Positions 31,278 through 60,199 of a stretch of DNA of 64,000 nucleotides are shown piece after piece (positions within the stretch are counted from its first letter, which is position 1; each line of letters opens with the position of its first letter). The notes beneath the pieces were generated by a model. The model was not told the DNA's origin. It saw only the letters and a list, made by a program, of their open reading frames with translations, and did no database searches. The position numbers were made by a program, and so were the translations under genes. Origin of the DNA: a virus; the IMG/VR virus record IMGVR_UViG_3300027971_000028, positions 32,001 through 96,000 of that record; one strand, 5' to 3'.

Positions 31278-32057
31278 ATGAGTGAGATCCAACGCTCTCT
31301 TACGGTTATGGTGTACGGAGAAAGCAAGGTAGGTAAATCTACTTTTGCTGTAACTGCTCCATACCCACGACTCATGCTTGACGTCGAGGGTGGGCACCGA
31401 TTCCTACCTATCGTTGTTAAGTATTGGGATCCTCTTCGCGAGGAACCACCAATCGCTGATGGAACTTGGGACACTGTTGTAGTTACAGTTCGTGACTATG
31501 ACACTGTTATTAAGGTTTATCAGTGGTTACAACTTGGAAAGCATCACTTCAAGAGTTTGATTATTGATTCAATCTCTGAACTACAAGTTAAATGTATGGA
31601 CAGCATCGCAGGTACAGAACAAATGAAGATGCAACAGTGGGGCGAACTTCTTCGTCACATGGGTGGGCTTCTTCGTGATCTTCGCGATCTAACTATGCAT
31701 GCTACAAATCCTCTTGAAGCAGTTGTACTTACTGCTATGTCAAGAACAAGCCAGGATGGAAGACACCGTCCATATCTACAAGGTCAACTAGCAATTCAAG
31801 CACCATATTTTTACGACATTCTTGGTGCGTTGACAGTAGAGCAAATGGCAAATCCAGATCCACTACAACCTCCTTATAAAGTAAGGCGTATGTATGTGGA
31901 AAGAACAAACGATTATGAGGCTGGCGAGCGAGTACAAGGTCGTCTAGGTTCTATAGTCGAGCAAGACAAGTTATCAATTGAAGTAATGCTTAATACCATT
32001 TTTGGAACTAAGCAAAATACTCAAGATAAAACAACTAAAGAAAAGAAAGAGGTATAA
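31278..32057 (+). CDS. Sak4-like AAA ATPase (single-strand annealing protein)
   Basis: YGESKVGKST Walker A, LDVEGG, IIDSISE; sits between the nuclease and SSB genes. Confidence 0.75.
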   Translation: MSEIQRSLTVMVYGESKVGKSTFAVTAPYPRLMLDVEGGHRFLPIVVKYWDPLREEPPIADGTWDTVVVTVRDYDTVIKVYQWLQLGKHHFKSLIIDSISELQVKCMDSIAGTEQMKMQQWGELLRHMGGLLRDLRDLTMHATNPLEAVVLTAMSRTSQDGRHRPYLQGQLAIQAPYFYDILGALTVEQMANPDPLQPPYKVRRMYVERTNDYEAGERVQGRLGSIVEQDKLSIEVMLNTIFGTKQNTQDKTTKEKKEV

Positions 32058-35751: not shown

Positions 35752-36276
35752 ATGTGGAAACCAGCAGAAAGCCTTAGATGGCAGAGTGAAGCCTTATGCG
35801 CTAAACCATCAAATAAAAAATATTTAGACTGGTTCTTTTCTAAAGATTTTTCTCAAAAATATGATGCTAAAAATTTATGTTTCTCCTGCCCTGTGAGAAA
35901 AGATTGTTTACAGTGGGCTTTAGAGCACAGACAAATTTGGGGAATATGGGGAGGCAAAGATGAAATTGAGATCCGCAGAACTCTTTCTGTTTCATATCTT
36001 GGAGAAGAGACTCGACGCCGTAGATACCCTAACTGTCCGTTCTGTACTGCTAGACCTGGCAAACTAGAAACATCTGTAGAAAAACTATCAACAACTGGAA
36101 GATGGACTACAGCAAAAATTGTTACCTGTACCGAGTGTGGCTTTGCTTGGAGAAGTAGAACTAGCGCCAATGCAGTAGAGGCGTATAAGGCTGAGAAAAT
36201 TGATAAAGCAGCCAAGTTAGAGAAGAAAAAAGAGAAATTAAGGAAGAAAAACAAGCGTAAAAAAGCAGTTTCATAG
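35752..36276 (+). CDS. whiB: WhiB-family regulator fused to a zinc ribbon and basic tail
   Basis: W...ALC..AKNLCFSCPVRKDC..WGIWGG, then CPFC...CTEC and a Lys-rich end. Confidence 0.9.
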   Translation: MWKPAESLRWQSEALCAKPSNKKYLDWFFSKDFSQKYDAKNLCFSCPVRKDCLQWALEHRQIWGIWGGKDEIEIRRTLSVSYLGEETRRRRYPNCPFCTARPGKLETSVEKLSTTGRWTTAKIVTCTECGFAWRSRTSANAVEAYKAEKIDKAAKLEKKKEKLRKKNKRKKAVS

Positions 36277-36344: not shown

Positions 36345-37487
36345 ATGTTAAAGAATAAAGTACGTATATTAGGTTTAGCCACTGCGCTAACACTTATTGC
36401 CAGCCCAGCCTTTGCTGGATGGGCAGCAGATACAGATGCACAAAGCACAGTATCTCGAATGAAGTCTGAAGATTTGCTTCAAACAAGAGCCGATGGCTAC
36501 TTTGCAATCACTTTAGATGAAATCACATCTACACCACAGACATCTGGTCTTACCAATGCCCCGTCTGCTAAAGCAAAATACGCAGTTATTATTGATGGTG
36601 TTGTTGATCGGATAGTTACTTGGGATGGTTATTCACCAAACCGTGTAATTGATTCATATGGAATTATTGTAAAGCTTCCTGCTAATGCTGGAGTTAAGTA
36701 TGTTGATTCAAGGGGTATAACTCGCCTTAAGCCAATTACTCAAGGCTCAATTGTTTCTGTATATGTAGCACCTGATGTAAAGGTAACTCCTACATATGAG
36801 ATCACTCAATTGTCTCCAGTAACACTCCCAACTGAGCCAACTGGTTCTGCTGTCTCAGAGGCAAACTCTTCAGTAGTTACCTCTCAAACACTTAATTCTA
36901 ACAACTCAGTCTCAATGACTGTTGAGGTTGCTGGCGTTCAGGATCTGCCGTCTACATCAGTTGTTTCTGTATACACAGTTACAGATGGTCGCTCAACTAC
37001 CTCAGTAGGTCTTGCGCAGGGGCAAAGCACGGTAACCATAAATGATCTACCTCAGGATCAAAACGTCACAGTTAAAACAGTAATTTGTGATACTTTGACA
37101 AATACTGAGACTGTAATATCAAACCCTATAGTTGCAACTGTTGCCTCAACTGCGCCAGCGCCAACTCCAGCTAGAAGTGCCGCAACAGATCGAGCAACAA
37201 TTACTGCTCCATCTATCTCTTCTCGAGTTGTAGATGCCTCTGGAGCCTTATCTGTGGCTATTGCAATGCCAGCAGTTCCAAACTTTGACTCAAGTAAATC
37301 TTGGGCAACTCTTATTGTCCGTGATAATAAATCTGGCTCAACTACAGCAATTGGAACAGATGGAACAGCCCAGACTCTAAATGTTGGATCCCTTGGATCA
37401 GGTCGTGATTACACCGTTTCGGTTGTAGTTCGTGATCTTGCTACAGGACAAGAGACTGTGATTAGTGGTGAAGGCATATCTAAGTAA
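36345..37487 (+). CDS. Secreted Ser/Thr-rich protein with signal peptide and two beta-sandwich-like repeats
   Basis: MLKNKVR-hydrophobic-PAFA signal peptide; SD AGGAG. Confidence 0.75.
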   Translation: MLKNKVRILGLATALTLIASPAFAGWAADTDAQSTVSRMKSEDLLQTRADGYFAITLDEITSTPQTSGLTNAPSAKAKYAVIIDGVVDRIVTWDGYSPNRVIDSYGIIVKLPANAGVKYVDSRGITRLKPITQGSIVSVYVAPDVKVTPTYEITQLSPVTLPTEPTGSAVSEANSSVVTSQTLNSNNSVSMTVEVAGVQDLPSTSVVSVYTVTDGRSTTSVGLAQGQSTVTINDLPQDQNVTVKTVICDTLTNTETVISNPIVATVASTAPAPTPARSAATDRATITAPSISSRVVDASGALSVAIAMPAVPNFDSSKSWATLIVRDNKSGSTTAIGTDGTAQTLNVGSLGSGRDYTVSVVVRDLATGQETVISGEGISK

Positions 37488-37497
37488 TACAACATAT

Positions 37498-37537
37498 AAA
37501 ATAGGGATCACTTATAGAGAGTGATCCCTATTTTTTA
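37498..37537 (+). terminator. Intrinsic terminator
   Basis: ATAGGGATCACT-N7-AGTGATCCCTAT followed by a T-run. Confidence 0.85.
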
Positions 37538-37561: not shown

Positions 37562-38242
37562 ATGACTCGCTCAATTATCTTAGTTCCATCTAGAACTAGA
37601 CCTAAAAGATTTGTTAAAGCAGTGGACTCTCTAAGATATCACTCAACTGTTTCGGACATAGTTGCTTGCTTAGATGAGGATGATCACGCTTTATATCCAA
37701 GGATGCAGGGTATTAAGTATGAGATAGGACCTAAACCAGAGCAGTTAGGTGTAAATGAAAAACTAAATCGCATGGCAAATAAGTATATGGACGAGTATGA
37801 CTACATTCTTTGGGCAGCGGATGACACGACTGTTATGACACCTAAGTGGGATGAAAACCTTATTAATGCAATAAAAGATGTGCCTATGGGCATCTCATAC
37901 CCAGATGATTTGGCTCAAAGGGCTCTTTTACCTAGCAACGGAACTTGTTTTGATTCAAATATTGTAAAAACACTTGGATACCTAGCCCCTCCTGAGTTAT
38001 TACATTTATATATAGATAATTTTTGGAAACTACTAGGAGATGCTATGCAGACTCTTAGATACTGCCCTGAAGTTATCTTAGAACATCACCACTACGCAGT
38101 TCGCAAGGCACCTTCTGATGATTTATATGCTGCGATAAACTCTCCTTGGATGTATGAGCGAGATAGGAATGCTTTGGCTAAATATAAGATGACAAATTTT
38201 CAGAGTGATATTACAAAACTAAAAGAGGCAATTAACAAATGA
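37562..38242 (+). CDS. GT-A fold glycosyltransferase (GT2-like)
   Basis: IILVPSR..IVACLDEDD..YDYILWAADD; EHHH near the C-terminus. Confidence 0.8.
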   Translation: MTRSIILVPSRTRPKRFVKAVDSLRYHSTVSDIVACLDEDDHALYPRMQGIKYEIGPKPEQLGVNEKLNRMANKYMDEYDYILWAADDTTVMTPKWDENLINAIKDVPMGISYPDDLAQRALLPSNGTCFDSNIVKTLGYLAPPELLHLYIDNFWKLLGDAMQTLRYCPEVILEHHHYAVRKAPSDDLYAAINSPWMYERDRNALAKYKMTNFQSDITKLKEAINK

Positions 38243-39243
38243 AAGTATTAGTAACTGGTGTAGCAGGGTTTATGGGCAGTCATTTAGCAGATGCTTTTCT
38301 TGCTAAAGGCTACGATGTTGTGGGAATAGATAATTTACTAGGTGGATATGAAGAAAATGTACCTTCAGGTGTTGATTTTCATAATATAGATTTAGATAAT
38401 TTAGAACTAATCCAACCTCTTTTCAAAGATGTAGATTTAGTAGTTCATACTGCTTGTACTGCCTATGAAGGGCTATCCGTATTCTCTCCGTCTCTAGTTG
38501 TTAGAAATACCATGCAAATAACAACAAACATAATGAGTGCTTGCGTAAAGGCTAATGTTAAAAAAATTGTTCATCTATCTTCTATGGCAAGGTATGGCAC
38601 TCAGGATGTAGTTCCCTTTGTTGAGTCAATGACCCCTAAGCCTCAGGATCCGTATGGAATTGCAAAGTATGGGGCTGAACTTATGATTAAAAATATTGCA
38701 GACACTCACGGACTTAATTATGTAATACTTGTTCCACACAACATTATTGGCCCTAGACAAAAATTTGATGACCCTTATAGAAACGTAGCCTCTATTATGA
38801 TAAATAGAATGCTTCAAGGTAAGCAACCTATTATCTATGGAAATGGCGAGCAAAAAAGATGTTTCTCATTTATGCAAGATGTCACTGATCCACTTATGAT
38901 TGCATGTGAGACTGATGTTGCTGATGGTCGAATTGTTAATATTGGTCCAGATGAAGAGTTTGTTACCATAAATGAACTAGCTCAGAAACTATCAATAATT
39001 CTTGATTTTAAGTTAGATCCAATTTATATGCCAGGAAGACCTCAAGAAGTATTTCACGCTAACTGCTCAGCCAATCTAGCAAGAGAACTTTTAAACTACA
39101 AAACCACTACCTCATTAGAGTCTGGATTAGTAGAACTAGTAAACTGGATTAAATCTAAGGGCGCTAGGCAGTTTAATTACCACCTGCCTCTAGAGTTTGT
39201 TACTGATAAAACTCCAAAAACTTGGACAGACAGGCTTATGTAA
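38239..39243 (+). CDS. NAD-dependent NDP-sugar epimerase/dehydratase (extended SDR)
   Basis: VTGVAGFMG, SSMARYG, YGIAK (YxxxK), HNIIGP. Confidence 0.92.
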   Translation: MKVLVTGVAGFMGSHLADAFLAKGYDVVGIDNLLGGYEENVPSGVDFHNIDLDNLELIQPLFKDVDLVVHTACTAYEGLSVFSPSLVVRNTMQITTNIMSACVKANVKKIVHLSSMARYGTQDVVPFVESMTPKPQDPYGIAKYGAELMIKNIADTHGLNYVILVPHNIIGPRQKFDDPYRNVASIMINRMLQGKQPIIYGNGEQKRCFSFMQDVTDPLMIACETDVADGRIVNIGPDEEFVTINELAQKLSIILDFKLDPIYMPGRPQEVFHANCSANLARELLNYKTTTSLESGLVELVNWIKSKGARQFNYHLPLEFVTDKTPKTWTDRLM

Positions 39244-40105
39244 AACTAGTAATAGATTTATATTTTTCTGTTCTATTTTCTTTATTTTTTAAGTAATTAA
39301 ACCACCACCTAGAGGCCCCAAGATTCTCACTCAAGGTAAGGACTCCATATATAGTTCTGTTGTCTATGTATTGAGTAATCCCTTTATCTCTAGCCGAGTT
39401 AGAAAAAACCATATACTCCCAGCGGTCTGACTGCTCTAGATAATTAAGTTCAGATAGGTACTCTCTTTTAATCAGATAAGTGCAGTGAACACACATGCAT
39501 TCAATTAACCCTCTTACCTCTTGATTTAAAATTTTGTAGTAAATATCTTCTGCAATAATTGACCCAAAGTCATCTACTTTGTCGTGGTAGTTTGAGTAGT
39601 ACCTGCTCATATGACCTTCTCGCTTAGCAGCCTCTATAGGAGTATCAGCGTTTTCTCCAAGCGCAACCGCATACCTTAAGAAGGGAGCAACTATAGGTAA
39701 GTCTAGTTTTACTAACTCTTTAAGAGTTTCTGGGAACAAGAAGTTGTCGGTATCTACTACAAAATAATACTCGCAATCTGTGAGTAAGGCTTGATTCATA
39801 CTTTCTTGACGAATTTTTCCTAGAACCCTAAATCTTTCCCCATTCCAGAAATGAACATCATACTGCTCTACCTTCTCTGGAACATCTTCGCTGTTATAGA
39901 TTAATCCTTTATATTTATCACCGTACTCTTCTACCCACTCTTCTAAAAGTTGTTTTGTGTTATCTGTGTTGTTATTAGTTCTTATGTAGATAAATATGTT
40001 TTCTTTAGGATAGTCCCAATCATTTAAACTTTCTAAAAAAAGTGGAAGAACTGCTTCTTTTTGTTTTACAAGAAGGGCTAAGAATACGTTTGGCTGTGTC
40101 ATCAA
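39236..40105 (-). CDS. GT-A glycosyltransferase resembling the procollagen galactosyltransferase N-terminal domain
   Basis: LPLFLESL..YPKENI..NNNTDNT..LEEW; VVDTDN (DxD); IVAPFL; CVHCTYLI. Confidence 0.7.
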   Translation of the reverse strand: MMTQPNVFLALLVKQKEAVLPLFLESLNDWDYPKENIFIYIRTNNNTDNTKQLLEEWVEEYGDKYKGLIYNSEDVPEKVEQYDVHFWNGERFRVLGKIRQESMNQALLTDCEYYFVVDTDNFLFPETLKELVKLDLPIVAPFLRYAVALGENADTPIEAAKREGHMSRYYSNYHDKVDDFGSIIAEDIYYKILNQEVRGLIECMCVHCTYLIKREYLSELNYLEQSDRWEYMVFSNSARDKGITQYIDNRTIYGVLTLSENLGASRWWFNYLKNKENRTEKYKSITSFT

Positions 40106-41139
40106 ATGCCTTGACGGTAGAAAACTAGGTTGTTTTTTAATCTAGTCTCACTTGGATTTCCCTTAAGGGCGCTTTCTCCATACTCTACTGCTTTTTCTTT
40201 ATCTCCTAAATTATGAGCAGATAAGGCTCTCATATCATCTAGCATCCAGTTCCATAGCGCTTCAGATGATAAATAATGTTTAGTTGGTTCACACTTAGCA
40301 ACTAACTTACAGGTCTCCCAGACGCCACCCCAGTCGGATTGTTCATAGTAACAACGTACTTTTTCATAATAAGCCTCACCGCATGGGTCAATTGATATTG
40401 CTTTATCTGCCCAAGTATGTGCCTCTTCAAGTCTTCCTAAATTTCTACATGCTTCAGATGCAAATCTGCAAACTGCTGCACGCTCTATGTACCAGTCTTT
40501 ACTAAATTCAGTAACCTTTTCAGCACTACTTATTACTAACTCCCACATTCTGTAGTAGTAATACTCACGGCAAAGGTAGACCCAGATTCTGTGATCTTCT
40601 CCAAACTCTTTACTTGCTGCCACAAGCATTGTCATATATTGACCACGAGACTTTGTATTATCTGGCTTGTGATACATCTTGGTAGGAATAGTGCAACTCA
40701 TTAGAGGTGTATCAAGGGATGGAACAAATACTTCATGAATAGGGTACTTCCAATAAATACCGTCTCTAGCGTGCAAACGAGCACCGAGCCAAGTGTGACC
40801 AGTATCAAAATCACACCAGCCTTTGTTAGCACCAGGTGCCCAATGTTCTTTTACTTTTTTAAAAAAATCTTCATCTACTGTCTCATCTAAATCTAAACTT
40901 AAACAGACATCTATATCGGTTGGTAATAGGCTTTGAGCAGTATTTCTTGCAACATCAAATCTCCAAGGTTTTACACTTATTTCATAGACAATAATGCCAT
41001 TACTTCTTAGTATCTCTACCGTTTTATCTGTAGATCCTGTGTCACAAACCAATCTAAAATCTGCATTTTTAGTAGTATCTGCCCACCGCTGGGCGTGCTT
41101 CTCTTCATTTAAGGCAATAGCGTAGGCAGCAACTTTCAT
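40102..41139 (-). CDS. GT2 glycosyltransferase with C-terminal TPR repeats
   Basis: IALNEE, DTGSTDKT, FDVARN, SLDLDE, YPIHE, then TPR-like helices. Confidence 0.85.
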   Translation of the reverse strand: MKVAAYAIALNEEKHAQRWADTTKNADFRLVCDTGSTDKTVEILRSNGIIVYEISVKPWRFDVARNTAQSLLPTDIDVCLSLDLDETVDEDFFKKVKEHWAPGANKGWCDFDTGHTWLGARLHARDGIYWKYPIHEVFVPSLDTPLMSCTIPTKMYHKPDNTKSRGQYMTMLVAASKEFGEDHRIWVYLCREYYYYRMWELVISSAEKVTEFSKDWYIERAAVCRFASEACRNLGRLEEAHTWADKAISIDPCGEAYYEKVRCYYEQSDWGGVWETCKLVAKCEPTKHYLSSEALWNWMLDDMRALSAHNLGDKEKAVEYGESALKGNPSETRLKNNLVFYRQGI

Positions 41140-42068: not shown

Positions 42069-43412
42069 TTATTTTGCGTATCTTATAATTACTAAACCGC
42101 TACCGCCAGCACCTGATGCATAAATACTTTGATTCGCACCACCACCGCCACCGCCAGTATTAGCAATACCAGCAGTACCTAATGTTGTTGTTGCATATAA
42201 TGCTCCTCTACCACCACCGCCTAAACCGCCGAGTGCAAATGAACCACCTTCAACCGCTCCGCCTCCGCCTCCTGCATAATATCCAGAATCTCCTGTACTA
42301 GTTGCAGATGCCCAAGTTGAGTATGATGCTCCAATTCCACCTGTTCCAACAGTTGATGGGCCTGCGCTTGTTCCAGCAGCACCTTTACCACCACCTCCAC
42401 CACCAACAAAGAAACCACTTCCACGATAACCGCCGCCGCCTGCATTACCTTGACCGCCTGCAAGTGCGGCTCCGCCAGATGTGTAATCTCCGTTATTGGT
42501 TCCCATTGAACCACCACCGCCACCAGATTGACCATTACTGCCAGTGCTATTCCACCAACTACCACCACCACCACCAAGAATTGTGTTTCCATTGAATGTT
42601 GTGTTACTTCCTGTTGCCCCATTACCACCAGTAGTTGCAGCGCCACCAGCACCAATTACAACAGGGTATCCAGTTGCGGTTAAAGATTGAGATGTATATT
42701 CAACTAAACCACCCGCTCCACCACCACCTGCATATTGGCTTCCACCTGAACCTCCACCTGCAATAGCAAGTACATCAGCAGTTATTGATTGCGTAGGAGT
42801 AAATGTGCCTGAGAATGGAAACGTATGATACCAGTAGGTACCGTCAGAGGATACGATTCCGCCAGTTGCTTTACTACCGCTAGTCACATTTGAGATGCCG
42901 TATAGGTAGAAGGTAGAGCCTGATACAAAGTTACCTGAGCCATATACAGCGCTTATTTTTATATCTGTAATTGGGTTAGAAGTACTTATTAAGCCAGCAT
43001 TTAATACAGCATAAGCAGTTGAGGCATTGTTTTCAGATACGCCATCAGTACTTACAGATTTGCTATTAGCAGAAGTATAATTAGGAATATAAATCTCAGT
43101 ATTACCAAATGTACTTGCAGTAGAGGTAGGACCATTAGACATACCTAAGTACAAATAAGTAGTAGCACTTGATTGACTTCCAGTAGTAGATCCACTTCCA
43201 TAAAGTTGTTTAGCAGAATAAATTGAACCAGTATTTATTGTTTCATTGTAGCCAACCTGTAGAGATAGATCAGTATTAGGTTGTCCATCTCTATCATCTC
43301 TAGCAGACACTAATATTTTTAAGTCAGTATAAGTTTGTGGAATAGCACTAAAGGTAATGCTTGCTGCTGTAGAAGACAAAGTCTTGACATCAATTAATTC
43401 CATATTTGCCAT
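42069..43412 (-). CDS. Beta-sandwich domain plus glycine-rich (polyglycine II-type) domain protein
   Basis: SITFSAIPQTYTDL N-domain; YHTF..SG.F..DVLAIAGGG..GGGGAGG C-domain. Confidence 0.8.
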   Translation of the reverse strand: MANMELIDVKTLSSTAASITFSAIPQTYTDLKILVSARDDRDGQPNTDLSLQVGYNETINTGSIYSAKQLYGSGSTTGSQSSATTYLYLGMSNGPTSTASTFGNTEIYIPNYTSANSKSVSTDGVSENNASTAYAVLNAGLISTSNPITDIKISAVYGSGNFVSGSTFYLYGISNVTSGSKATGGIVSSDGTYWYHTFPFSGTFTPTQSITADVLAIAGGGSGGSQYAGGGGAGGLVEYTSQSLTATGYPVVIGAGGAATTGGNGATGSNTTFNGNTILGGGGGSWWNSTGSNGQSGGGGGSMGTNNGDYTSGGAALAGGQGNAGGGGYRGSGFFVGGGGGGKGAAGTSAGPSTVGTGGIGASYSTWASATSTGDSGYYAGGGGGAVEGGSFALGGLGGGGRGALYATTTLGTAGIANTGGGGGGANQSIYASGAGGSGLVIIRYAK

Positions 43413-43428
43413 TATCTATTCTCCTTTA

Positions 43429-44733
43429 TCACAATGCGTAACGAATAATTACGATGCCACTACCACCAGTAGCACCGCCATTTCTAGCGCTACCACCTCC
43501 ACCGCCAGTATTTGCAGTTCCAGCAGTTCCAGTAGTACCAATTACACCATCATTCAACCCACCTGCACCGCCACCACCTAAACCACCTGCACCAGCAGAA
43601 ATTCCACTATTAACGCCAGCGTGACCACCACCACCACCTGCAAAATAATAATTTCCACCTGATAATTGACCAGCACCAGTTGTTGCTCCACCAGAAATTG
43701 CTGTAGTAGAACCTATACCACCATTACCACCAATATTAGATGATGCGTTACTGCCAACAGCGCCTTTACCACCACCACCACCACCTGCACCTTGTGATGA
43801 AGTTCCATCACCAGTACCACCATTATTTCCTTGTCCTGATGTTCCTAACCCAACACTACCGAAAGAACCTCCTTGACCGCCACCTGAACCAAAAGTTCCA
43901 GTTGCCGCAGCAGTATTGTAAGTACCTCCGCCTCCACCACCTTTTACTAATGTTAATGAACCAAATTTAGAGTCACCACCAGTAGCACCAATAGGTGAAC
44001 CAGCAGCACCACCACCACCAACTGTTACTGTGTAGTTAGTTGCAGTAAGTGATTGTCCAGTAAATGTAAGTAAACCACCTGCACCTCCGCCACCTGCATA
44101 ATAATCTGAACTACCACCAGCACCACCAGCAACAACAAGTACATCTGCTGTTATTGCTTCGTTAGGGATAAAAGCACCTGATGAAGTAAAAGCGTGATAC
44201 ATATAAGTACCATCACTTACAACAATATTTCCGCCTTGTGCTTTCTGAGCCTTATCTCCTACTTGGATTCCGTAGATTGAGAAGGTTGAGCCTGAAGCAA
44301 AGTTACCACTTAAAGGAAATAAAGTTAGTGAAGTTATTGCTGAGGTATTACGCCAAAGATTAACCCAAGCACCTGTTCTATTATTTGCATTATTTCCACG
44401 AACTATTGCAGTTTTGTAAGTTGTTGAATTAGAATAATTATTTATTTGATGAATATTGGTATTCAAAGATGCATAAGCCTCTCCACCAACCGCATAATTT
44501 TCATTGATATTACGGCCACTAAATGCACTACTACCGTTACCTAATAAATAAGTTTTTGAATAATTTGTACCAGTATCACCATTATATTGACAACAAATTA
44601 CTTGAGTATCTATTGTACAAGTTACATTATTAACAATAACTAAATCGGTATAGCCTTGTGGAATACTGGAGAAGGTAACTGATGCTGCTGCGCTACCTAG
44701 TGTCTGAGTTGCGATGGGTGTATAGGTACTCAT
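43429..44733 (-). CDS. Beta-sandwich domain plus glycine-rich domain protein
   Basis: Same two-domain layout as 42069..43412. Confidence 0.8.
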   Translation of the reverse strand: MSTYTPIATQTLGSAAASVTFSSIPQGYTDLVIVNNVTCTIDTQVICCQYNGDTGTNYSKTYLLGNGSSAFSGRNINENYAVGGEAYASLNTNIHQINNYSNSTTYKTAIVRGNNANNRTGAWVNLWRNTSAITSLTLFPLSGNFASGSTFSIYGIQVGDKAQKAQGGNIVVSDGTYMYHAFTSSGAFIPNEAITADVLVVAGGAGGSSDYYAGGGGAGGLLTFTGQSLTATNYTVTVGGGGAAGSPIGATGGDSKFGSLTLVKGGGGGGTYNTAAATGTFGSGGGQGGSFGSVGLGTSGQGNNGGTGDGTSSQGAGGGGGGKGAVGSNASSNIGGNGGIGSTTAISGGATTGAGQLSGGNYYFAGGGGGHAGVNSGISAGAGGLGGGGAGGLNDGVIGTTGTAGTANTGGGGGSARNGGATGGSGIVIIRYAL

Positions 44734-45327: not shown

Positions 45328-45861
45328 TTAGGAAATGTCGCCTACTACTAAAAACGTATTACTTGCTGTGCAGATTACTGCGGCTGAAGAGTATTGAACT
45401 CTTAACTTAGGCGCAGTTGCTGTAGCACCAGATGAGTTAATAGTTACTCCAGCCCCTTGAGCAAAACTAACCTGACCTGCTCCAGTTTGAGAAACGTTAA
45501 CAACATCATTAGCACTAAATACTGATGGAGGAATTGTAAGAGTAATTGCCGCAGCATTACTTAAAGTCACAAGATCATTAAGATCTCCTGCTTGTAAGGT
45601 ATAGGTTGTTCCAGTTACGTTATTAATAGCCAAAATAGCGCTAGCAGCACCTGTTGGTCCAGTTACTGTTGAGCCTGTAGTACCCGTAGCCCCTGTTGAG
45701 CCCGTAGGACCTGTTGGCCCTGTAGAACCAGTTGCCCCAGTAGAGTAAGGAACAGTCGAACGAACGACCTCCCAAACGGTACCGTTCCACTTCCAAACAC
45801 GGTTGCCAACGGTATGGGTATCGTTGACGGACGGGGAGTTTGGAAAATCTATTGCTGGCAT
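45328..45861 (-). CDS. Short collagen-like fibre/adaptor protein
   Basis: IDFPNSP..W.WNGTVW N-domain, a few GXT triplets, C-terminal TYTL...QTGAGQV...RVQYSSA...GDIS domain. Confidence 0.8.
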   Translation of the reverse strand: MPAIDFPNSPSVNDTHTVGNRVWKWNGTVWEVVRSTVPYSTGATGSTGPTGPTGSTGATGTTGSTVTGPTGAASAILAINNVTGTTYTLQAGDLNDLVTLSNAAAITLTIPPSVFSANDVVNVSQTGAGQVSFAQGAGVTINSSGATATAPKLRVQYSSAAVICTASNTFLVVGDIS

Positions 45862-46023: not shown

Positions 46024-46379
46024 TAGATTGCCACCTTAATCCATTCTTTGTTTATTTCAGACCAAGTCCATCTAAAACCTTCAACATCTGCTGGTCTAGC
46101 AACTGGTGCTTCCCAATCAAAAGTTGTATAATTTAATTTCCAAGATGCATATGGTTGAGGTGTAATAAATACATCAAAGGTACCATCGTATGTATAATCA
46201 ACTCCAGCCATACGTTTTCTTATATTACCATTGTAAGATGTTCTTCTAACCATATGTGGAGTTCCTTGTTCATAATATGCTTCAGGAGTTAAACCATCAA
46301 TTAGTTCAGTTTCATCTTTACCAACTATAACCATTTCTACTTTATTATTTTCTCTATTTATATATGCGTAATGTGCCAT
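46023..46379 (-). CDS. Small Trp-rich protein, paralogue 2 (start revised to 46379, MAHYAY)
   Basis: RTSYNGNIRKRMAGVDYTYD..F..PQPYASW..WEAP; TAATG overlap with the upstream gene. Confidence 0.8.
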   Translation of the reverse strand: MAHYAYINRENNKVEMVIVGKDETELIDGLTPEAYYEQGTPHMVRRTSYNGNIRKRMAGVDYTYDGTFDVFITPQPYASWKLNYTTFDWEAPVARPADVEGFRWTWSEINKEWIKVAI

Positions 46380-47854
46380 TATGCCCAACTTACTGTGTCT
46401 GAGACACCTGCTGCTGTAACTGTTGATATTTTATAACCACCACTTGTGGCAGTTGTTTGTGTAACTCCACCGCTAAAAGTTGCGGTAAGAGATGATATGT
46501 ATTTTAAAATAACCACACCAGAACCACCTGTACCAAAAAGAGTAGAACTTGTAGTTCCAGCACCATTTCCAGTATTTGCTGCGCCATTACCATAAGTTGG
46601 TGCTGCTCCTGCTGCATATGTTACTGAAGAGCCAGTAATAGAATTAGCAGTTCCAGGTCCTGGAATACATTCATTAGCACCAGCCAGTGAAGCTGCACCA
46701 CCAGAACCTCCGCCTGCTCCACCATCATATGCGCCATTACCACCAGTTGGGGTTTGAATTGAAGATGACCCAGCGTAACCTTCTACTGGTGAATAACCTC
46801 CAGCATTTCCTGAACCAGCGCCACCACCATAAGAATAATCACCAGCACCACCACCAGAGCCACCTGATGCACCAGCAGCGCCTCTAGTATTACCGCCTCG
46901 TCCACCACCAGATGAAGAAGTAGTATTAAAAGTAGAGTTACCACCATTAGAACCAGGAGCACCACCTGCTCCAACTGTAACCGTGTAATTTGTTGAAGAA
47001 GAAACACTCTGACTAGTAAAGTATCTATAACCACCTGCGCCACCTGCGCCAATAAATTCTTTACCACCGCCTTCGGCATTGTACCCGCTACCACCACCAC
47101 CAGCAACAATTAAATAATCAATTGAAATTGGTATTGTTACCGAACTAGTGGCAGAACTTTCAGGAGAATCTCCATTAGCGTTTGTTGTTTTTACTTTAAA
47201 AGTATAAGAAGAATTTTGTGAAAGTCCAGTAACTGTATGACTTGTTGAACCTATTGTTGCTGCGTTTACTGGTGTTTGAGCAGTCGCACCAATATATGGG
47301 GTAATAGTAATAGCAGTAAGAGCACTACCACCATTTGAATTAAGTGTCCAAGTTACTACAACATCTGTACCTGATAAAGTAGCAGTACCAATAGTTGGAG
47401 CCTGTGGTCTAGTTGATGGAGTAACAGGACTAGCATTGCCAGTATTTGTTGTTGTACCAAAATTGTTTTGTGCATTACCATATACAGTATAAGCAGTTCC
47501 TGGAGTTAATCCAGTTAAAGTAACTGTTGTGCTAGAACTTGAAGCACTAAATCCACCAGCAGTTGTATAAGCATTATATTGAGTAGCCGTACTGCCACCA
47601 GTGCCAGGAGTAAATACAACCGATAGTTTACCAGCAGTAGATGTATAAGCATCACCAGAAGAAGTATCGGTTGGAGTTGCAATAGTTGGAACTGATGGAG
47701 GGGCAGAAGATGCTACCCAAGTAGTGCCATTATAAATTTCAAGAAGTTCTAATGTACCATTGTAATAGGTATCACCAATTACAGGGCTACCAGGGCGGGC
47801 AGCGGTGTTACCAGAAGGTATGCCACCTTTAGAAGGAAATACTGCTGATGCCAT
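46379..47854 (-). CDS. FN3-like repeats plus glycine-rich domain protein
   Basis: Two P..P...W/F...GG..Y...GLT.G..Y units, then IDYLIVAGGG..GAGGAGG. Confidence 0.8.
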   Translation of the reverse strand: MASAVFPSKGGIPSGNTAARPGSPVIGDTYYNGTLELLEIYNGTTWVASSAPPSVPTIATPTDTSSGDAYTSTAGKLSVVFTPGTGGSTATQYNAYTTAGGFSASSSSTTVTLTGLTPGTAYTVYGNAQNNFGTTTNTGNASPVTPSTRPQAPTIGTATLSGTDVVVTWTLNSNGGSALTAITITPYIGATAQTPVNAATIGSTSHTVTGLSQNSSYTFKVKTTNANGDSPESSATSSVTIPISIDYLIVAGGGGSGYNAEGGGKEFIGAGGAGGYRYFTSQSVSSSTNYTVTVGAGGAPGSNGGNSTFNTTSSSGGGRGGNTRGAAGASGGSGGGAGDYSYGGGAGSGNAGGYSPVEGYAGSSSIQTPTGGNGAYDGGAGGGSGGAASLAGANECIPGPGTANSITGSSVTYAAGAAPTYGNGAANTGNGAGTTSSTLFGTGGSGVVILKYISSLTATFSGGVTQTTATSGGYKISTVTAAGVSDTVSWA

Positions 47855-48281: not shown

Positions 48282-48621
48282 TTGTTATCTCCTTCCAAGA
48301 TAGGTCATCTTCTGACCAGTAATATTCTTTATCCTCTACTGTAGGCATAGGAGTAGGTGCTTGCCATTGGCAAGTAGCCTCATCTAATGTCCAAGAGTTA
48401 AAAGGTTTAGGTGCTATAAAAGCATCTCGTGTAGCATCATAGGTATAACCTTTATTTGCATAATTTTTTTTAATTGAACCATCTTGACTTGTTTCAATCC
48501 AAGTGCCACCAAGATTATTTAATAACCATTGATAACCTTTATCACCGTTGGCATCATTATCATCTCCAACTAATACTCTTAAAACTTTATTGTTTTTATC
48601 AATTTCTGCCCAATAACTCAT
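48274..48621 (-). CDS. Small Trp-rich protein, paralogue 3
   Basis: WAEIDKNNKVLRVLV..LGGTW..KNYA.GYTYDATRDAFIAPKPFNSWTLDEATCQWQAP. Confidence 0.8.
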   Translation of the reverse strand: MSYWAEIDKNNKVLRVLVGDDNDANGDKGYQWLLNNLGGTWIETSQDGSIKKNYANKGYTYDATRDAFIAPKPFNSWTLDEATCQWQAPTPMPTVEDKEYYWSEDDLSWKEITND

Positions 48622-49454
48622 ACTATGTACCTCACAATTACAATTCCACTTCCGCCATTACCTGCGCCATCATTTCCACCCGCACCGCCACCGCCAGTAT
48701 TAACTAAAGCGTTTTTATTAGATGGACGGTAACCACCGCCACCTGCGACTTTTGTATTAGTCAGAGTGCCACCTTGACCAGTTCCACCTGAAGCATAATA
48801 AACAGTTCCAGAAACATTATCACCAGTTGTTGTTGCCAAACCCCAAGCAGAATAAGCAGAAGTACCCGCACCTGCCGCGCTGGTTTGCCAATTCCCACCT
48901 GCACCTGTGGCTCCCCCGCCACCTCCGCCTTCTGAACCTCCACCAACTCCTGTTCCGCCAGCAAATCCATTTCCTGATTGACCACCACTACCAGTATTAA
49001 ATTGACCGCCTTGTCCACCAGTTGTTGTTATTGTTGTAAATCCACTACCAGTCATACTTGATGAAGAACCATCTCCACCATTTCCATCTAATGAGCCGCC
49101 GCCGCCGTTTGCGCCAACTGTTATTGTGTATGTAACGGCTGTAATTGTTCTTGAATCGGTAAGTTTAACTTCACCTGCGCCACCACCCGCACCTGCATAT
49201 GTAGCAGTTTTTCCATACATACCGCCACCGCCACCAGCAATAGTTAAGATTTCACAAACGCCACCAGTTGTAACTACTAAACTGCCATTACTAGTAAAGG
49301 TGTGATATTTATATCCACCACTTGTAACTTCAGCGCCACCACTTGCAACAATTCCACTAGGAATATTACCGCCAAATCCTCCACCAAACCAATAGTTAAT
49401 AGTGTTGGCTCCAACACCCCCAGTTAATCTACTTCTTTGTCCGTATCTTGACAT
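48618..49454 (-). CDS. Glycine-rich domain protein
   Basis: ASGG..YKYHTFTSNG..EILTIAGGG..GAGGGAG. Confidence 0.8.
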   Translation of the reverse strand: MSRYGQRSRLTGGVGANTINYWFGGGFGGNIPSGIVASGGAEVTSGGYKYHTFTSNGSLVVTTGGVCEILTIAGGGGGMYGKTATYAGAGGGAGEVKLTDSRTITAVTYTITVGANGGGGSLDGNGGDGSSSSMTGSGFTTITTTGGQGGQFNTGSGGQSGNGFAGGTGVGGGSEGGGGGGATGAGGNWQTSAAGAGTSAYSAWGLATTTGDNVSGTVYYASGGTGQGGTLTNTKVAGGGGYRPSNKNALVNTGGGGAGGNDGAGNGGSGIVIVRYIV

Positions 49455-49811: not shown

Positions 49812-51173
49812 TTATCCGAATATTTGTGCGGCTAGTATTGGTTGGTCATTGTCTGCTGATGGTACTGTCACTGCTGCCCACTCAAGGCCACCTGTGGCCG
49901 CTGAGTTAGCTTTTAGATAGTAATCATTAGTTCCTACTGCAAGTCTACCAATTGTGTCAGCGGCAGTACCTACAAGTAAGTCACCTTTTGCATCAATTGT
50001 AGTTGAAAGAACTGCGTTTGCTACGTTATAGGCACCAATTGCAAGTATCTCAACAATGTCATTAACAGCAAGAGCGGAAAGGCTAGCAATTGAGGTGCCA
50101 TTACTTGCGGTGTAATCTGTTCCTCTTACAAGTAAAACACCGTTAAGAAATACTTGCTCATAGCCTGCCGTGTATGCAAGTGTTACTGAGTTTGCATCTG
50201 CTCCAGAAACTCCAGTTTCACCACCTGCGGCTACAAAACGATATCTAGTTAAAGTTGCAGTACCAGTAGGTCCTGTAGGTCCAGTACCTCCAGTGCTTCC
50301 TGTAACACCAGTTGGCCCTGTAGGACCTGTATTTCCAGTAGGTCCATCATTAGCACTCGCTGCCTCTACCCAATAACCATCATAATAAATATAAACATTT
50401 CCTGAAGATGCGTCATACCATGCGTCCCCCGCCTCAGGTGCGGCAGGTGGAGTTGTTGCAACTGTTGAGAATTGACCATCATCTCCAGTTATACCTGTTG
50501 CACCCGTATTTCCAGTTGCACCAGTTAAACCAGTTGCTCCCGTTAATCCTGTTGCACCAGTATTACCTTGCGCTCCTGTATTACCAGTTACACCAGTATT
50601 TCCAACTGCTCCAGTTGCACCCGTATTACCAGTCGGACCATCATTTGCTGAGGCTGCCTCTACCCAATAGCCATCATAATAAACATATAAATTTCCACTT
50701 GCAGAGTCATACCATGCATCCCCAACTTCGGGGGATGCTGGTGGAGTTGTTGCGGCTACGCTAAATTGACCGTCATCTCCAGTTACACCAGTCTGTCCAG
50801 TTACACCTGTTGGACCTGTAGGTCCTGTACTACCTTTACCTGAAAGTAAATCCCACCTTGCAGAGGAACCAGGAATGTGTGAAGCAATATCACCACTTGC
50901 AATAAATGTGTTACAAAAATATGTACTGCCGTTGTATTGAACTACATCACGGACATTATATTCAACAAAATCAAAGGCTGCTCGCCAATTTATACCTGTT
51001 ATACCAGTAGGCCCAGTACTTCCAGTTACACCCGTAGGTCCAGTCTGACCAGTAGCACCCGTTGGGGCTAAATCACGGACTACTTTCCATGCGGTACCGT
51101 TCCAACGCCAAGTAGTATTACCAGAGGTAAATGTACTATTTACGCTAGGACTATTAGGAAAATCTATAGGCAT
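49812..51173 (-). CDS. Collagen-like (Gly-X-Thr) fibre protein
   Basis: IDFPNSP N-domain, GXT runs, two GDAWYD...YYDGYWVE nodes, C-terminal [11 protein letters not shown]. Confidence 0.85.
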
Positions 51174-51291: not shown

Positions 51292-53439
<2,148 letters not shown>

Positions 53440-53525: not shown

Positions 53526-54452
53526 TCATACTGCAGACTTTAGATATCTAACTACAACTATCCCCGAGCCACCATTTCCACCTGTTGAGTCATAACTTTG
53601 ACCATCAGAACTACGAACACCGCCTCCTCCTCCGCCACCACCTGAACCTGTATTTGTAGTTGCACTACATTGATAAAAATTTAACGCATCTCCAGCAGAT
53701 GTAAAATAGTTTCCGTTTCCTCCTCCTCCTGAACCTCTTGATGCAGAGTTTGAGCTATTTACGCTTCCTCCTCCTCCGCCACCAGCAATATATCCAGAAG
53801 ATGTTGCTTGTTGCCAAGTTAAATTAAAAAATCCTCCTATTCCACTCATTACCGAACTAATAGCAGATAACCATGTTGAATATGCAGAAGTTCCACTTCC
53901 ACCTGCGCCACCATTATTGCCACTTGCTGCACTACCAACTGCACCTGCTCCGCCGCCGCCACCATTACCCTGTGATGCGTAAGCTCCACCTGCATAACCT
54001 TCTACTGGAGAGTATGAACCAGAGTTACCAGAACCTGCTGCTTGGTTTGCTCCATACCAACCTCTACCACCACCACCAGAGCCACCGTTACCACCAGCGC
54101 TAGCATACTCTGCGCCACGGCCGCCACCTGATGTATTTAAAGAATTAAATGAAGATGGGCTTCCAGAACTGTAGCCACCTCCTGCGCCAATAGTTGCATT
54201 ATATGATCCTGCTGAAAGAGTTGCAGTACTAGAACGAACTCCACCAGCACCGCCGCCGCCACCACCACTTCCACCACCTCCGCCGCCAGCAATAACTAAA
54301 TATTCAACAGATATACTTGATCCAGTTATTGTTAAATCACTTGTACTAGTAAATACTCGGTAATAATAAGTCGAATCAGATGAAAGTGTCCCCCCACTTA
54401 CAAATGTTCTTTTTGATATTTCAGAGGAAAATACTCCTACAAGATGACGCAA
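53526..54452 (-). CDS. Glycine-rich domain protein
   Basis: VSGG..YRVFTS..VEYLVIAGGGGG; starts immediately after the collagen gene stop. Confidence 0.8.
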   Translation of the reverse strand: MRHLVGVFSSEISKRTFVSGGTLSSDSTYYYRVFTSTSDLTITGSSISVEYLVIAGGGGGGSGGGGGGAGGVRSSTATLSAGSYNATIGAGGGYSSGSPSSFNSLNTSGGGRGAEYASAGGNGGSGGGGRGWYGANQAAGSGNSGSYSPVEGYAGGAYASQGNGGGGGAGAVGSAASGNNGGAGGSGTSAYSTWLSAISSVMSGIGGFFNLTWQQATSSGYIAGGGGGGSVNSSNSASRGSGGGGNGNYFTSAGDALNFYQCSATTNTGSGGGGGGGGVRSSDGQSYDSTGGNGGSGIVVVRYLKSAV

Positions 54453-57917
<3,465 letters not shown>

Positions 57918-57928
57918 TTAGCCCCTCC

Positions 57929-60199
<2,271 letters not shown>

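Follow-up and report, generated by a model that had tools for sequence, protein, structure and literature searches.

The 64,000-nt window analysed here (positions 32,001 to 96,000 of IMG/VR record IMGVR_UViG_3300027971_000028) encodes a stand-alone glycosyltransferase (GT) of the GT-A fold that is homologous to the N-terminal lobe, GT1, of the animal procollagen galactosyltransferase COLGALT1 and to the accessory (AC) domain of the PLOD enzymes. The gene for this GT1-like protein overlaps that of a second enzyme, in which a GT-A domain is joined to TPRs (GT-TPR), and it closes an island of fibre genes that includes collagen-like proteins built of Gly-X-Thr (G-X-Thr) triplets. Our best explanation, to which we give about an even chance, is that the GT1-like protein is an active UDP-hexose (uridine diphosphate hexose) transferase that extends Thr-linked glycans begun by GT-TPR on the Thr-rich tail-fibre proteins. 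The process would be a phage or bacterial O-glycosylation of collagen-like proteins, carried out by a GT lineage that has no characterised active member.

39236..40102, minus strand: GT1-like protein of 288 aa, a stand-alone GT-A homologue of COLGALT1 GT1 and of the PLOD accessory domain
40102..41139, minus strand: partner GT-TPR, GT-A plus TPR, 345 aa (Pfam TPR_2 31.2 bits; phrog_13126 2e-71; GT2 just under threshold)
40100..40104, minus strand: TGATG overlap of the GT-TPR stop and the ATG of the GT1-like gene, read directly from the sequence
39746..39754, minus strand: D117-T-D119, DxD metal motif, aligned with COLGALT1 D166-A-D168
39416..39418, minus strand: E229 in the RWEY motif, near-invariant acidic position, candidate catalytic or sugar-binding residue

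Homology, fold and donor site

The open reading frame (ORF) that a first-pass annotation, made from the letters alone, had placed at 39236..40105(-) is indeed there; it includes an alternative TTG start at 40105, with an ATG one codon inside at 40102. Because relatives are 287-288 aa long and the ATG forms a TGATG overlap with the upstream stop, we place the start at 40102, and all residue numbers count from it. No transmembrane or hydrophobic segment was found in the protein, which is therefore expected to be cytoplasmic. Family libraries say little about it: PHROGs and NCBIfam hold no family for it, Pfam Anp1 (PF03452, GT62) reaches 26.2 bits, under its gathering threshold of 28.8 bits, and Pfam Glycos_transf_2 (PF00535, GT2) reaches 21.9 bits against a cut-off of 23.3 and covers residues 15-64 only. 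A tblastn search of 50,697 phage records returned one weak archaeal-virus match only, and a scan of the genome contigs with peptide patterns from the protein gave no match, the patterns being too specific for this to count as evidence of absence. As a lead only, the ESM Atlas places it among stand-alone proteins of ~220-330 aa that come from tailed phages and giant viruses and bear the label "GT2".

Searches of the PDB were far more specific. With phmmer against 177,635 PDB sequences, collagen-modifying enzymes were the sole matches at meaningful E-values: COLGALT1 at E 9.6e-16 (query residues 4-147 aligned with 24-169 of the 9evj chain) and LH3 residues 272-402 at E 7.6e-7. A profile built from 11 phage homologues strengthened both (COLGALT1 2.9e-26, LH3 1.6e-9) and found no further PDB chain at E<=0.01. 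The AlphaFold2 model is a single GT-A domain (pLDDT 76.5, pTM 0.83), and Foldseek ranked COLGALT1 (2e-21) above LH3 (8e-17) and mimivirus R699 (3e-13), with generic GT2 enzymes appearing from ~1e-9 onward; in structure comparison SpsA, TarP, TarS and RmlT scored 15-16. The nearest folds are thus COLGALT1 residues 49-320 and the LH3 AC domain, clearly above generic GT2, and the phage protein is a member of the COLGALT-GT1/PLOD-AC fold clade of GT-A domains. The specific resemblance to the COLGALT1 N-terminal domain proposed in the first-pass annotation therefore holds, generic GT2s being the best matches in neither the profile nor the Foldseek searches. The motif pairs it had listed are likewise all present in the HMMER alignments and go far beyond chance: LP..L, TNNNTDNT..L.EW/TDHNMDNT..L.EW, VVDTDN/FVDADN, IVAPFL/VVAPML, YSNY/YSNF and CVHCTYLI/MVHSTFLI, of which the YSNY and VHCTYLI pairs lie in a weaker second stretch of the phmmer alignment. 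The protein is not, however, a member of the COLGALT/GLT25D procollagen galactosyltransferase family, because it has no GT25 lobe and no hydroxylysine substrate; PF01755 (GT25) does not match it, and it is one 288-aa domain rather than a two-lobe enzyme.

The COLGALT1 N-lobe holds UDP-Gal and a metal through R61, Y126, K133, W135, R139, V143, R147, D166/D168, H235/S236 and D264/D265 (PMC12987934, PMC11897130). Adding 27 to the 9evj_A chain numbering gives the UniProt numbering, as verified on the DxD motif and the other named residues, and the HMMER alignment then pairs the two sites as follows.

COLGALT1 R61: phage K13
COLGALT1 Y126: phage Val
COLGALT1 K133: phage H84
COLGALT1 W135: phage W86
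COLGALT1 R139: phage R90
COLGALT1 V143: phage L94
COLGALT1 R147: phage R98
COLGALT1 D166/D168: phage D117/D119
COLGALT1 H235/S236: phage H206/C207
COLGALT1 D264/D265: within an insertion beside the phage RWEY motif
COLGALT1 S262, next to D264/D265: phage E229

Among 254 distant relatives, mostly 35-50% identical to the phage protein, N43, D47, R98 and D119 are kept without exception and position 13 is almost always basic (K in 229, R in 24). W86, R90, D117 and G253 are each retained in 253 relatives, H206 in 251, H84 and N120 in 250 and E229 in 248. To judge from these counts, the pattern is that of a working donor site. The near-invariant E229 opposite COLGALT1 S262 moreover hints at activity; the inactivity of GT1 has been attributed partly to its missing such acidic residues (PMC12003778).

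The GT-TPR partner and the bacterial family

The TGATG overlap suggests that the GT1-like protein is translationally coupled to GT-TPR. In the GT-TPR model residues 1-140 form an alpha/beta domain and residues 165-342 a helical repeat; the best full-length fold matches are ThuS and SunS, both peptide glycosyltransferases, followed by OGT-type TPR domains, and the match to the flagellin O-glycosyltransferase GmaR is weak (E 0.005, residues 4-95 only). By architecture GT-TPR would belong to the protein/peptide glycosyltransferase class of the SgtA/GmaR/SunS type. Like the GT1-like protein, it lacks a membrane anchor.

In 60 of 69 related IMG/VR loci (38-98% identity) GT-TPR adjoins the GT1-like gene, down to 53% identity of the latter, and it is missing only at two truncated loci without upstream sequence and beside the most distant homologues. 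Of the two genes, GT-TPR shows the stronger conservation across these loci. The pairing also occurs as gene fusions: P0165, P0286 and P0209 (~645 aa) are head-to-tail fusions of a complete GT-TPR (1-358) and the GT1-like module (377-644), in the same order as the phage genes and 34-44% identical to them. A looser tie is that a profile of the phage GT-TPR GT domain matches the N-terminal GT2 in 124 out of 257 bacterial proteins that bear the module; for 120 of the 124 the match lies upstream of the module. Prediction of a complex between the two phage proteins gave no answer (score 0.00) and weighs neither for nor against binding. In one clade (L047:10861-12516(-), and also L048 and L050) a 551-aa GT-TPR carries an extra C-terminal S-adenosylmethionine (SAM)-methyltransferase and is inverted relative to the GT1-like gene, an arrangement that mirrors bacterial GT2-methyltransferase-module fusions.

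An exhaustive profile search returned 1245 representative clusters at E<=1e-3, 344 of them at E<=1e-30, mostly long multidomain proteins. Pfam scans and source names place the bacterial module among GT2, SAM-methyltransferase, sulfotransferase, FkbM, GT32 and GT25 domains, in organisms that include Mesorhizobium, Hyphomicrobiales, Aestuariivirga and Methylobacter. BLAST with GT1 had been reported to find matches solely in animals and giant viruses, and a later gene fusion was proposed (PMC12003778). The resemblance to the animal enzyme that the first-pass annotation stressed is no special one, because the bacterial modules are far closer to the phage protein (45-50% identity, E ~1e-85) than is COLGALT1 (23-25%). 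By these comparisons the protein belongs to a large prokaryotic and phage family.

Among the 120 long relatives listed, 26 contain a GT25 domain, and in P0121 and P0130 GT25 is encoded directly 3' of the module. In the Mesorhizobium protein P0338 (931 aa; GmaR-like GT2, module and GT25), residues 404-804 are collinear with both COLGALT1 lobes (chain 24-441, E 2.7e-44), and the N-terminal GT2 matches GmaR at 7e-9. These architectures suggest that the two-lobe COLGALT-like unit, module plus GT25, already exists in bacteria, a prokaryotic origin that appears not to have been reported. The contig of P0165 (Logan SRR19514065) shows the GT-TPR-module fusion beside SecDF in a bacterial cluster whose other genes are a GT1, a GT25, four of sulfotransferase type and one further module gene that stands alone; the cluster hints at a sulfated glycan made by the same enzyme set.

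The fibre island, the acceptor and competing explanations

The GT1-like gene is the final gene of a minus-strand island in which collagen-like genes, four large and one small, are accompanied by genes for five Gly_rich_2 proteins.

49812-51173, 51292-53430, 54453-57914 and 57929-60178, minus strand: four collagen-like fibre genes with G-X-Thr triplets, proposed acceptors
45328..45861, minus strand: small collagen-like fibre protein, 8 triplets, Thr at Y in all
42069..44733, minus strand: two Gly_rich_2 proteins resembling fibre tips, located between collagen genes and GT pair, alternative acceptors
42069-44733, 46379-47854, 48618-49454 and 53526-54452, minus strand: Gly_rich_2 paralogues (PF21722/phrog_2295), five in all, interleaved with the collagen-like stalk genes

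One of the five Gly_rich_2 paralogues contains fn3 domains, and the island is hypervariable even among relatives that are otherwise 90-98% identical. The collagen genes lie 5-10 kb from the GT1-like gene in this one minus-strand island; the first-pass remark that it stands beside them holds in that sense, the genes not being direct neighbours. In the collagen genes of the window, Thr occupies 267 of 357 Y positions (75%) and X is chiefly Ala, Asn, Val or Pro. Lys is entirely absent from the triplets, which bears out, and sharpens, the earlier remark that it is nearly lacking. The complete genome moreover shows no GT25 and no match to a 2-oxoglutarate (2OG)-Fe(II) oxygenase (PF13640, 2OG-FeII_Oxy_3), and hydroxylysine, already dismissed in that annotation, is thereby excluded as the acceptor. 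Its suggestion of Thr or a primed sugar instead is sensible in view of the Thr-filled Y positions, the acceptor itself being a proposal still. In 17 of the 28 related loci of at least 15 kb a collagen-like ORF lies within the fetched flank; in each, Thr takes up 62-100% of Y positions and Lys none.

Three separate contexts have GT-TPR genes next to collagen genes of the G-X-Thr kind: the island of the window, Actinomycetia phage DSL-LC01 and the locus L072. In the related actinophage DSL-LC01 (129 kb; L074, OQ999401.1 positions 92184-111224) the G-P-T collagen genes are followed in turn by a YHYH protein, a Trp halogenase, a GT-TPR (35% identical) and WhiB. At L072:2-7096, as at L073, a collagen-like gene is followed in order by an acidic protein of 178 aa, a GT-TPR, a GT-TPR-module fusion, a stand-alone GT25 with an overlapping start, a 493-aa protein with no assigned role and an integrase; the collagen-like gene matches Pfam Collagen at 1.3e-27, contains G-A-T, G-E-T and G-D-T repeats and has Thr in 43 of its 66 Y positions. 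L071 encodes a Thr-rich protein with the C-terminal domain of the L072 collagen-like protein, together with the fusion and an acidic-protein homologue. The two acidic proteins are 31% identical, which suggests a conserved helper of the glycosylation cassette. The halogenase of DSL-LC01, flavin-dependent (Pfam 5.5e-50), is unusual for its place inside a fibre island, and a UDP-galactopyranose mutase and another GT are found ~6 kb off. The link to collagen runs mainly through GT-TPR, not through the GT1-like protein.

The virus is a freshwater phage of an actinobacterial host; cultured phages of Nanopelagicales are by now available. The IMG/VR record is 133,336 bp long, is rated 100% complete and contains structural genes of siphovirus type; WhiB-like regulators are an actinophage marker (PMC10202952). 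The replication genes are located at 26-35 kb, apart from the fibre island, and the far side of the GT pair holds the following genes.

35752..36276, plus strand: WhiB-like regulator (Pfam Whib 6.7e-17), which flanks the GT pair in relatives and marks the actinobacterial host
36345-37487: Ser/Thr-rich protein, 380 aa, signal-peptide-like N-terminus, no family match, in closest relatives only
37562..38242, plus strand: third glycosyltransferase (phrog_14945 7e-39), in closest relatives only (>=86% identity)
38239..39243, plus strand: NDP-sugar epimerase/dehydratase (Pfam Epimerase 5e-52), convergent with the GT1-like gene, only in relatives of >=86% identity

The last two genes (37562-39243) seem to have been inserted recently, between WhiB and the GT pair. 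The epimerase/dehydratase shares 8 bases with the GT1-like gene at their 3' ends, and the GalE and LegB models score it under their cut-offs. The Ser/Thr-rich protein could serve as an additional GT substrate. A strong bidirectional terminator with a perfect 16-bp stem (37498-37534) follows its gene and is the sole signal above shuffled expectation in a promoter and terminator scan of 35.5-46.5 kb. Megablast of 36-44 kb against sequenced phages returned no match.

Under our preferred explanation, the GT1-like protein would be a soluble, cytoplasmic, metal-dependent GT-A glycosyltransferase with a complete nucleotide-sugar site and the second enzyme of a two-gene unit. By analogy with the UDP-Gal complex of COLGALT1, a UDP-hexose would be bound via K13, D47, W86, R90, R98, D117xD119 and H206. 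The TPR arm of GT-TPR would recognise the Thr-rich collagen-like (G-X-Thr), and perhaps the Gly-rich, fibre proteins; GT-TPR would place the first sugar on Thr, and the GT1-like protein would add the next. In the closest relatives the epimerase and third GT may further diversify the glycan, which could stabilise Pro-poor triple helices, alter the surface properties of the fibre, or both. Galactosyl-Thr in the cuticle collagen of Riftia is credited with thermal stabilisation (cited in PMC10141479). The presence of GT-TPR in DSL-LC01, in which no homologue of the GT1-like protein was found, fits a core initiator accompanied by variable elongating enzymes.

Several observations weigh against this explanation. 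All characterised clade members, COLGALT1 GT1, LH3 AC and R699 AC, are non-catalytic (PMC12003778, PMC12987934, PMC12279948), and conservation of the donor site is not proof of turnover, because the inactive COLGALT1 GT1 conserves its site too (PMC12003778). The model loops 162-184 and 226-230, the latter containing E229, are of low confidence. The distant viral homologues L065-L068 have no GT-TPR neighbour (the contexts of L065 and L068 are uninformative), most bacterial relatives are polysaccharide-type multidomain enzymes with no evident collagen link, and the GT1-like protein must be dispensable for the core function, since DSL-LC01 has GT-TPR and collagens without it.

The inactive precedents would fit a non-catalytic accessory subunit, in which UDP-sugar and metal act as structural or allosteric cofactors and the protein supports the catalytic GT-TPR as a heterodimer or, where the two are fused, as a second lobe. 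In three solved systems the fold is inactive beside a catalytic GT (PMC12003778, PMC12987934, PMC12279948), these same COLGALT1, LH3 and R699 domains are the closest structures to our model, COLGALT1 GT1 likewise keeps its donor site, and the phage protein is coupled, or in relatives fused, to a GT-A enzyme. We nevertheless think this role, the main rival, unlikely (about one chance in five), as bacterial proteins chain the module with several GT, methyltransferase and sulfotransferase domains in assembly-line fashion, stand-alone homologues exist with no GT-TPR neighbour, and E229 is near-invariant where COLGALT1 has Ser. An active pair with a non-virion acceptor, which would either build a free glycan or remodel glycans or glycoproteins of the host envelope so as to mask receptors or exclude superinfection, appears to us just as doubtful. 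The nearest relatives are labelled cell-wall or lipopolysaccharide (LPS) GTs and located in glycan clusters, such roles are often assigned to phage GTs (PMC10202952), and the secreted Ser/Thr-rich protein is encoded nearby (36345-37487); the TPR arm and the ThuS/SunS/SgtA-like architecture, however, indicate a peptide acceptor, neither protein is anchored to a membrane, and the repeated position at the ends of collagen-fibre islands would be left unexplained.

That the GT1-like protein itself initiates Thr-O-glycosylation of collagen, as a functional analogue of collagen galactosyltransferase with GT-TPR extending or targeting, would suit its real homology to collagen-modifying enzymes and the galactosyl-Thr collagens described for Riftia (cited in PMC10141479). 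We regard it as improbable: the collagen acceptor site of COLGALT1 lies in the GT25 lobe, not GT1 (PMC12987934), and the phage has no GT25; on G-P-T repeats, initiation has been proven by experiment for a GT-TPR enzyme (PMC7157674), and it is GT-TPR, not the GT1-like protein, that DSL-LC01 retains. Glycosylation of phage DNA bases against host nucleases, a common proposal for phage GTs (PMC10202952), is the least credible reading and was rejected on account of the position of the gene, which is part of the fibre island and not of the replication genes, and of the TPRs of its partner; the PDB searches also reveal no resemblance to known DNA glucosyltransferases.

Relation to known collagen-modifying and phage systems

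In three recent structural studies neither the COLGALT1 N-lobe nor the PLOD accessory domain proved active, and where these domains came from and what they are for was left open. The phage gene and its bacterial family show the fold to be widespread in prokaryotes and phages with its donor site intact, and a small, soluble, stand-alone protein offers an easy test of what the fold does when active. The ancestral activity that the first-pass annotation had imagined for a stand-alone version is plausible given the conserved donor-site residues, the activity itself being a conjecture. On a bolder and rather doubtful view, the COLGALT-GT1/PLOD-AC fold began as an active prokaryotic or phage enzyme on G-X-Thr collagen-like proteins, module and GT25 being already bacterial, and the phage enzyme would be the active version of an animal pseudo-glycosyltransferase, galactosylating or glucosylating Thr-linked sugars and so stabilising Pro-poor triple helices. 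If true, the tie of this enzyme lineage to collagen would be older than animals.

Compared with the COLGALT1/GLT25D1 N-terminal domain (GT1, also GalT-N or NGT; PDB 9evj, 8zgc, 9u7h), the phage protein stands alone, without GT25 lobe, endoplasmic reticulum signal or hydroxylysine substrate, and is probably active, whereas COLGALT1 GT1 is non-catalytic and binds UDP-Gal and metal structurally (PMC12003778, PMC12987934). In the AC domains of LH3/PLOD3 and mimivirus R699 the ability to bind nucleotide and metal has been lost (PMC12003778, PMC11897130), and each is joined to a catalytic GT, in LH3 also to a hydroxylase; the phage protein is separate, and its site is complete. Bacterial multidomain GTs such as P0338 are closest by sequence and share the same invariant residues, but they carry the module within long fusions that also contain GT2, methyltransferase, sulfotransferase or GT25 domains, whereas in the phage it has its own gene. 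The yeast Mnn9/Anp1 (GT62) mannosyltransferases are 13% identical to the phage protein, use GDP-mannose and are Golgi membrane proteins. Freeman et al. reportedly described in 2023 mycobacteriophage-encoded GTs that modify the phage's own structural proteins in the cytoplasm; the substrates are said to be capsid and tail-tube proteins, with different GT families and no collagen-like acceptors. PMC11256854 makes an allusion to this case.

The closest functional parallels are C. difficile SgtA-BclA3 and B. anthracis BclA. SgtA, a 358-aa GT-A protein with four TPRs encoded beside bclA3, is a Mn2+-dependent enzyme that adds beta-O-linked N-acetylglucosamine to Thr of G-P-T repeats (PMC7157674), and the phage GT-TPR is likened to it by size, architecture and a neighbouring Thr-at-Y collagen-like gene. 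Elongation of the BclA3 glycan has yet to be assigned to an enzyme (PMC7157674), and one of COLGALT-GT1 type is not known to take part in it. The GT1-like protein offers a candidate type for such elongating enzymes on BclA3 and other collagen-like proteins of bacteria, and the gene pair is a candidate system for glycosylating phage collagen-like fibres that bears on host recognition by abundant freshwater actinophages.

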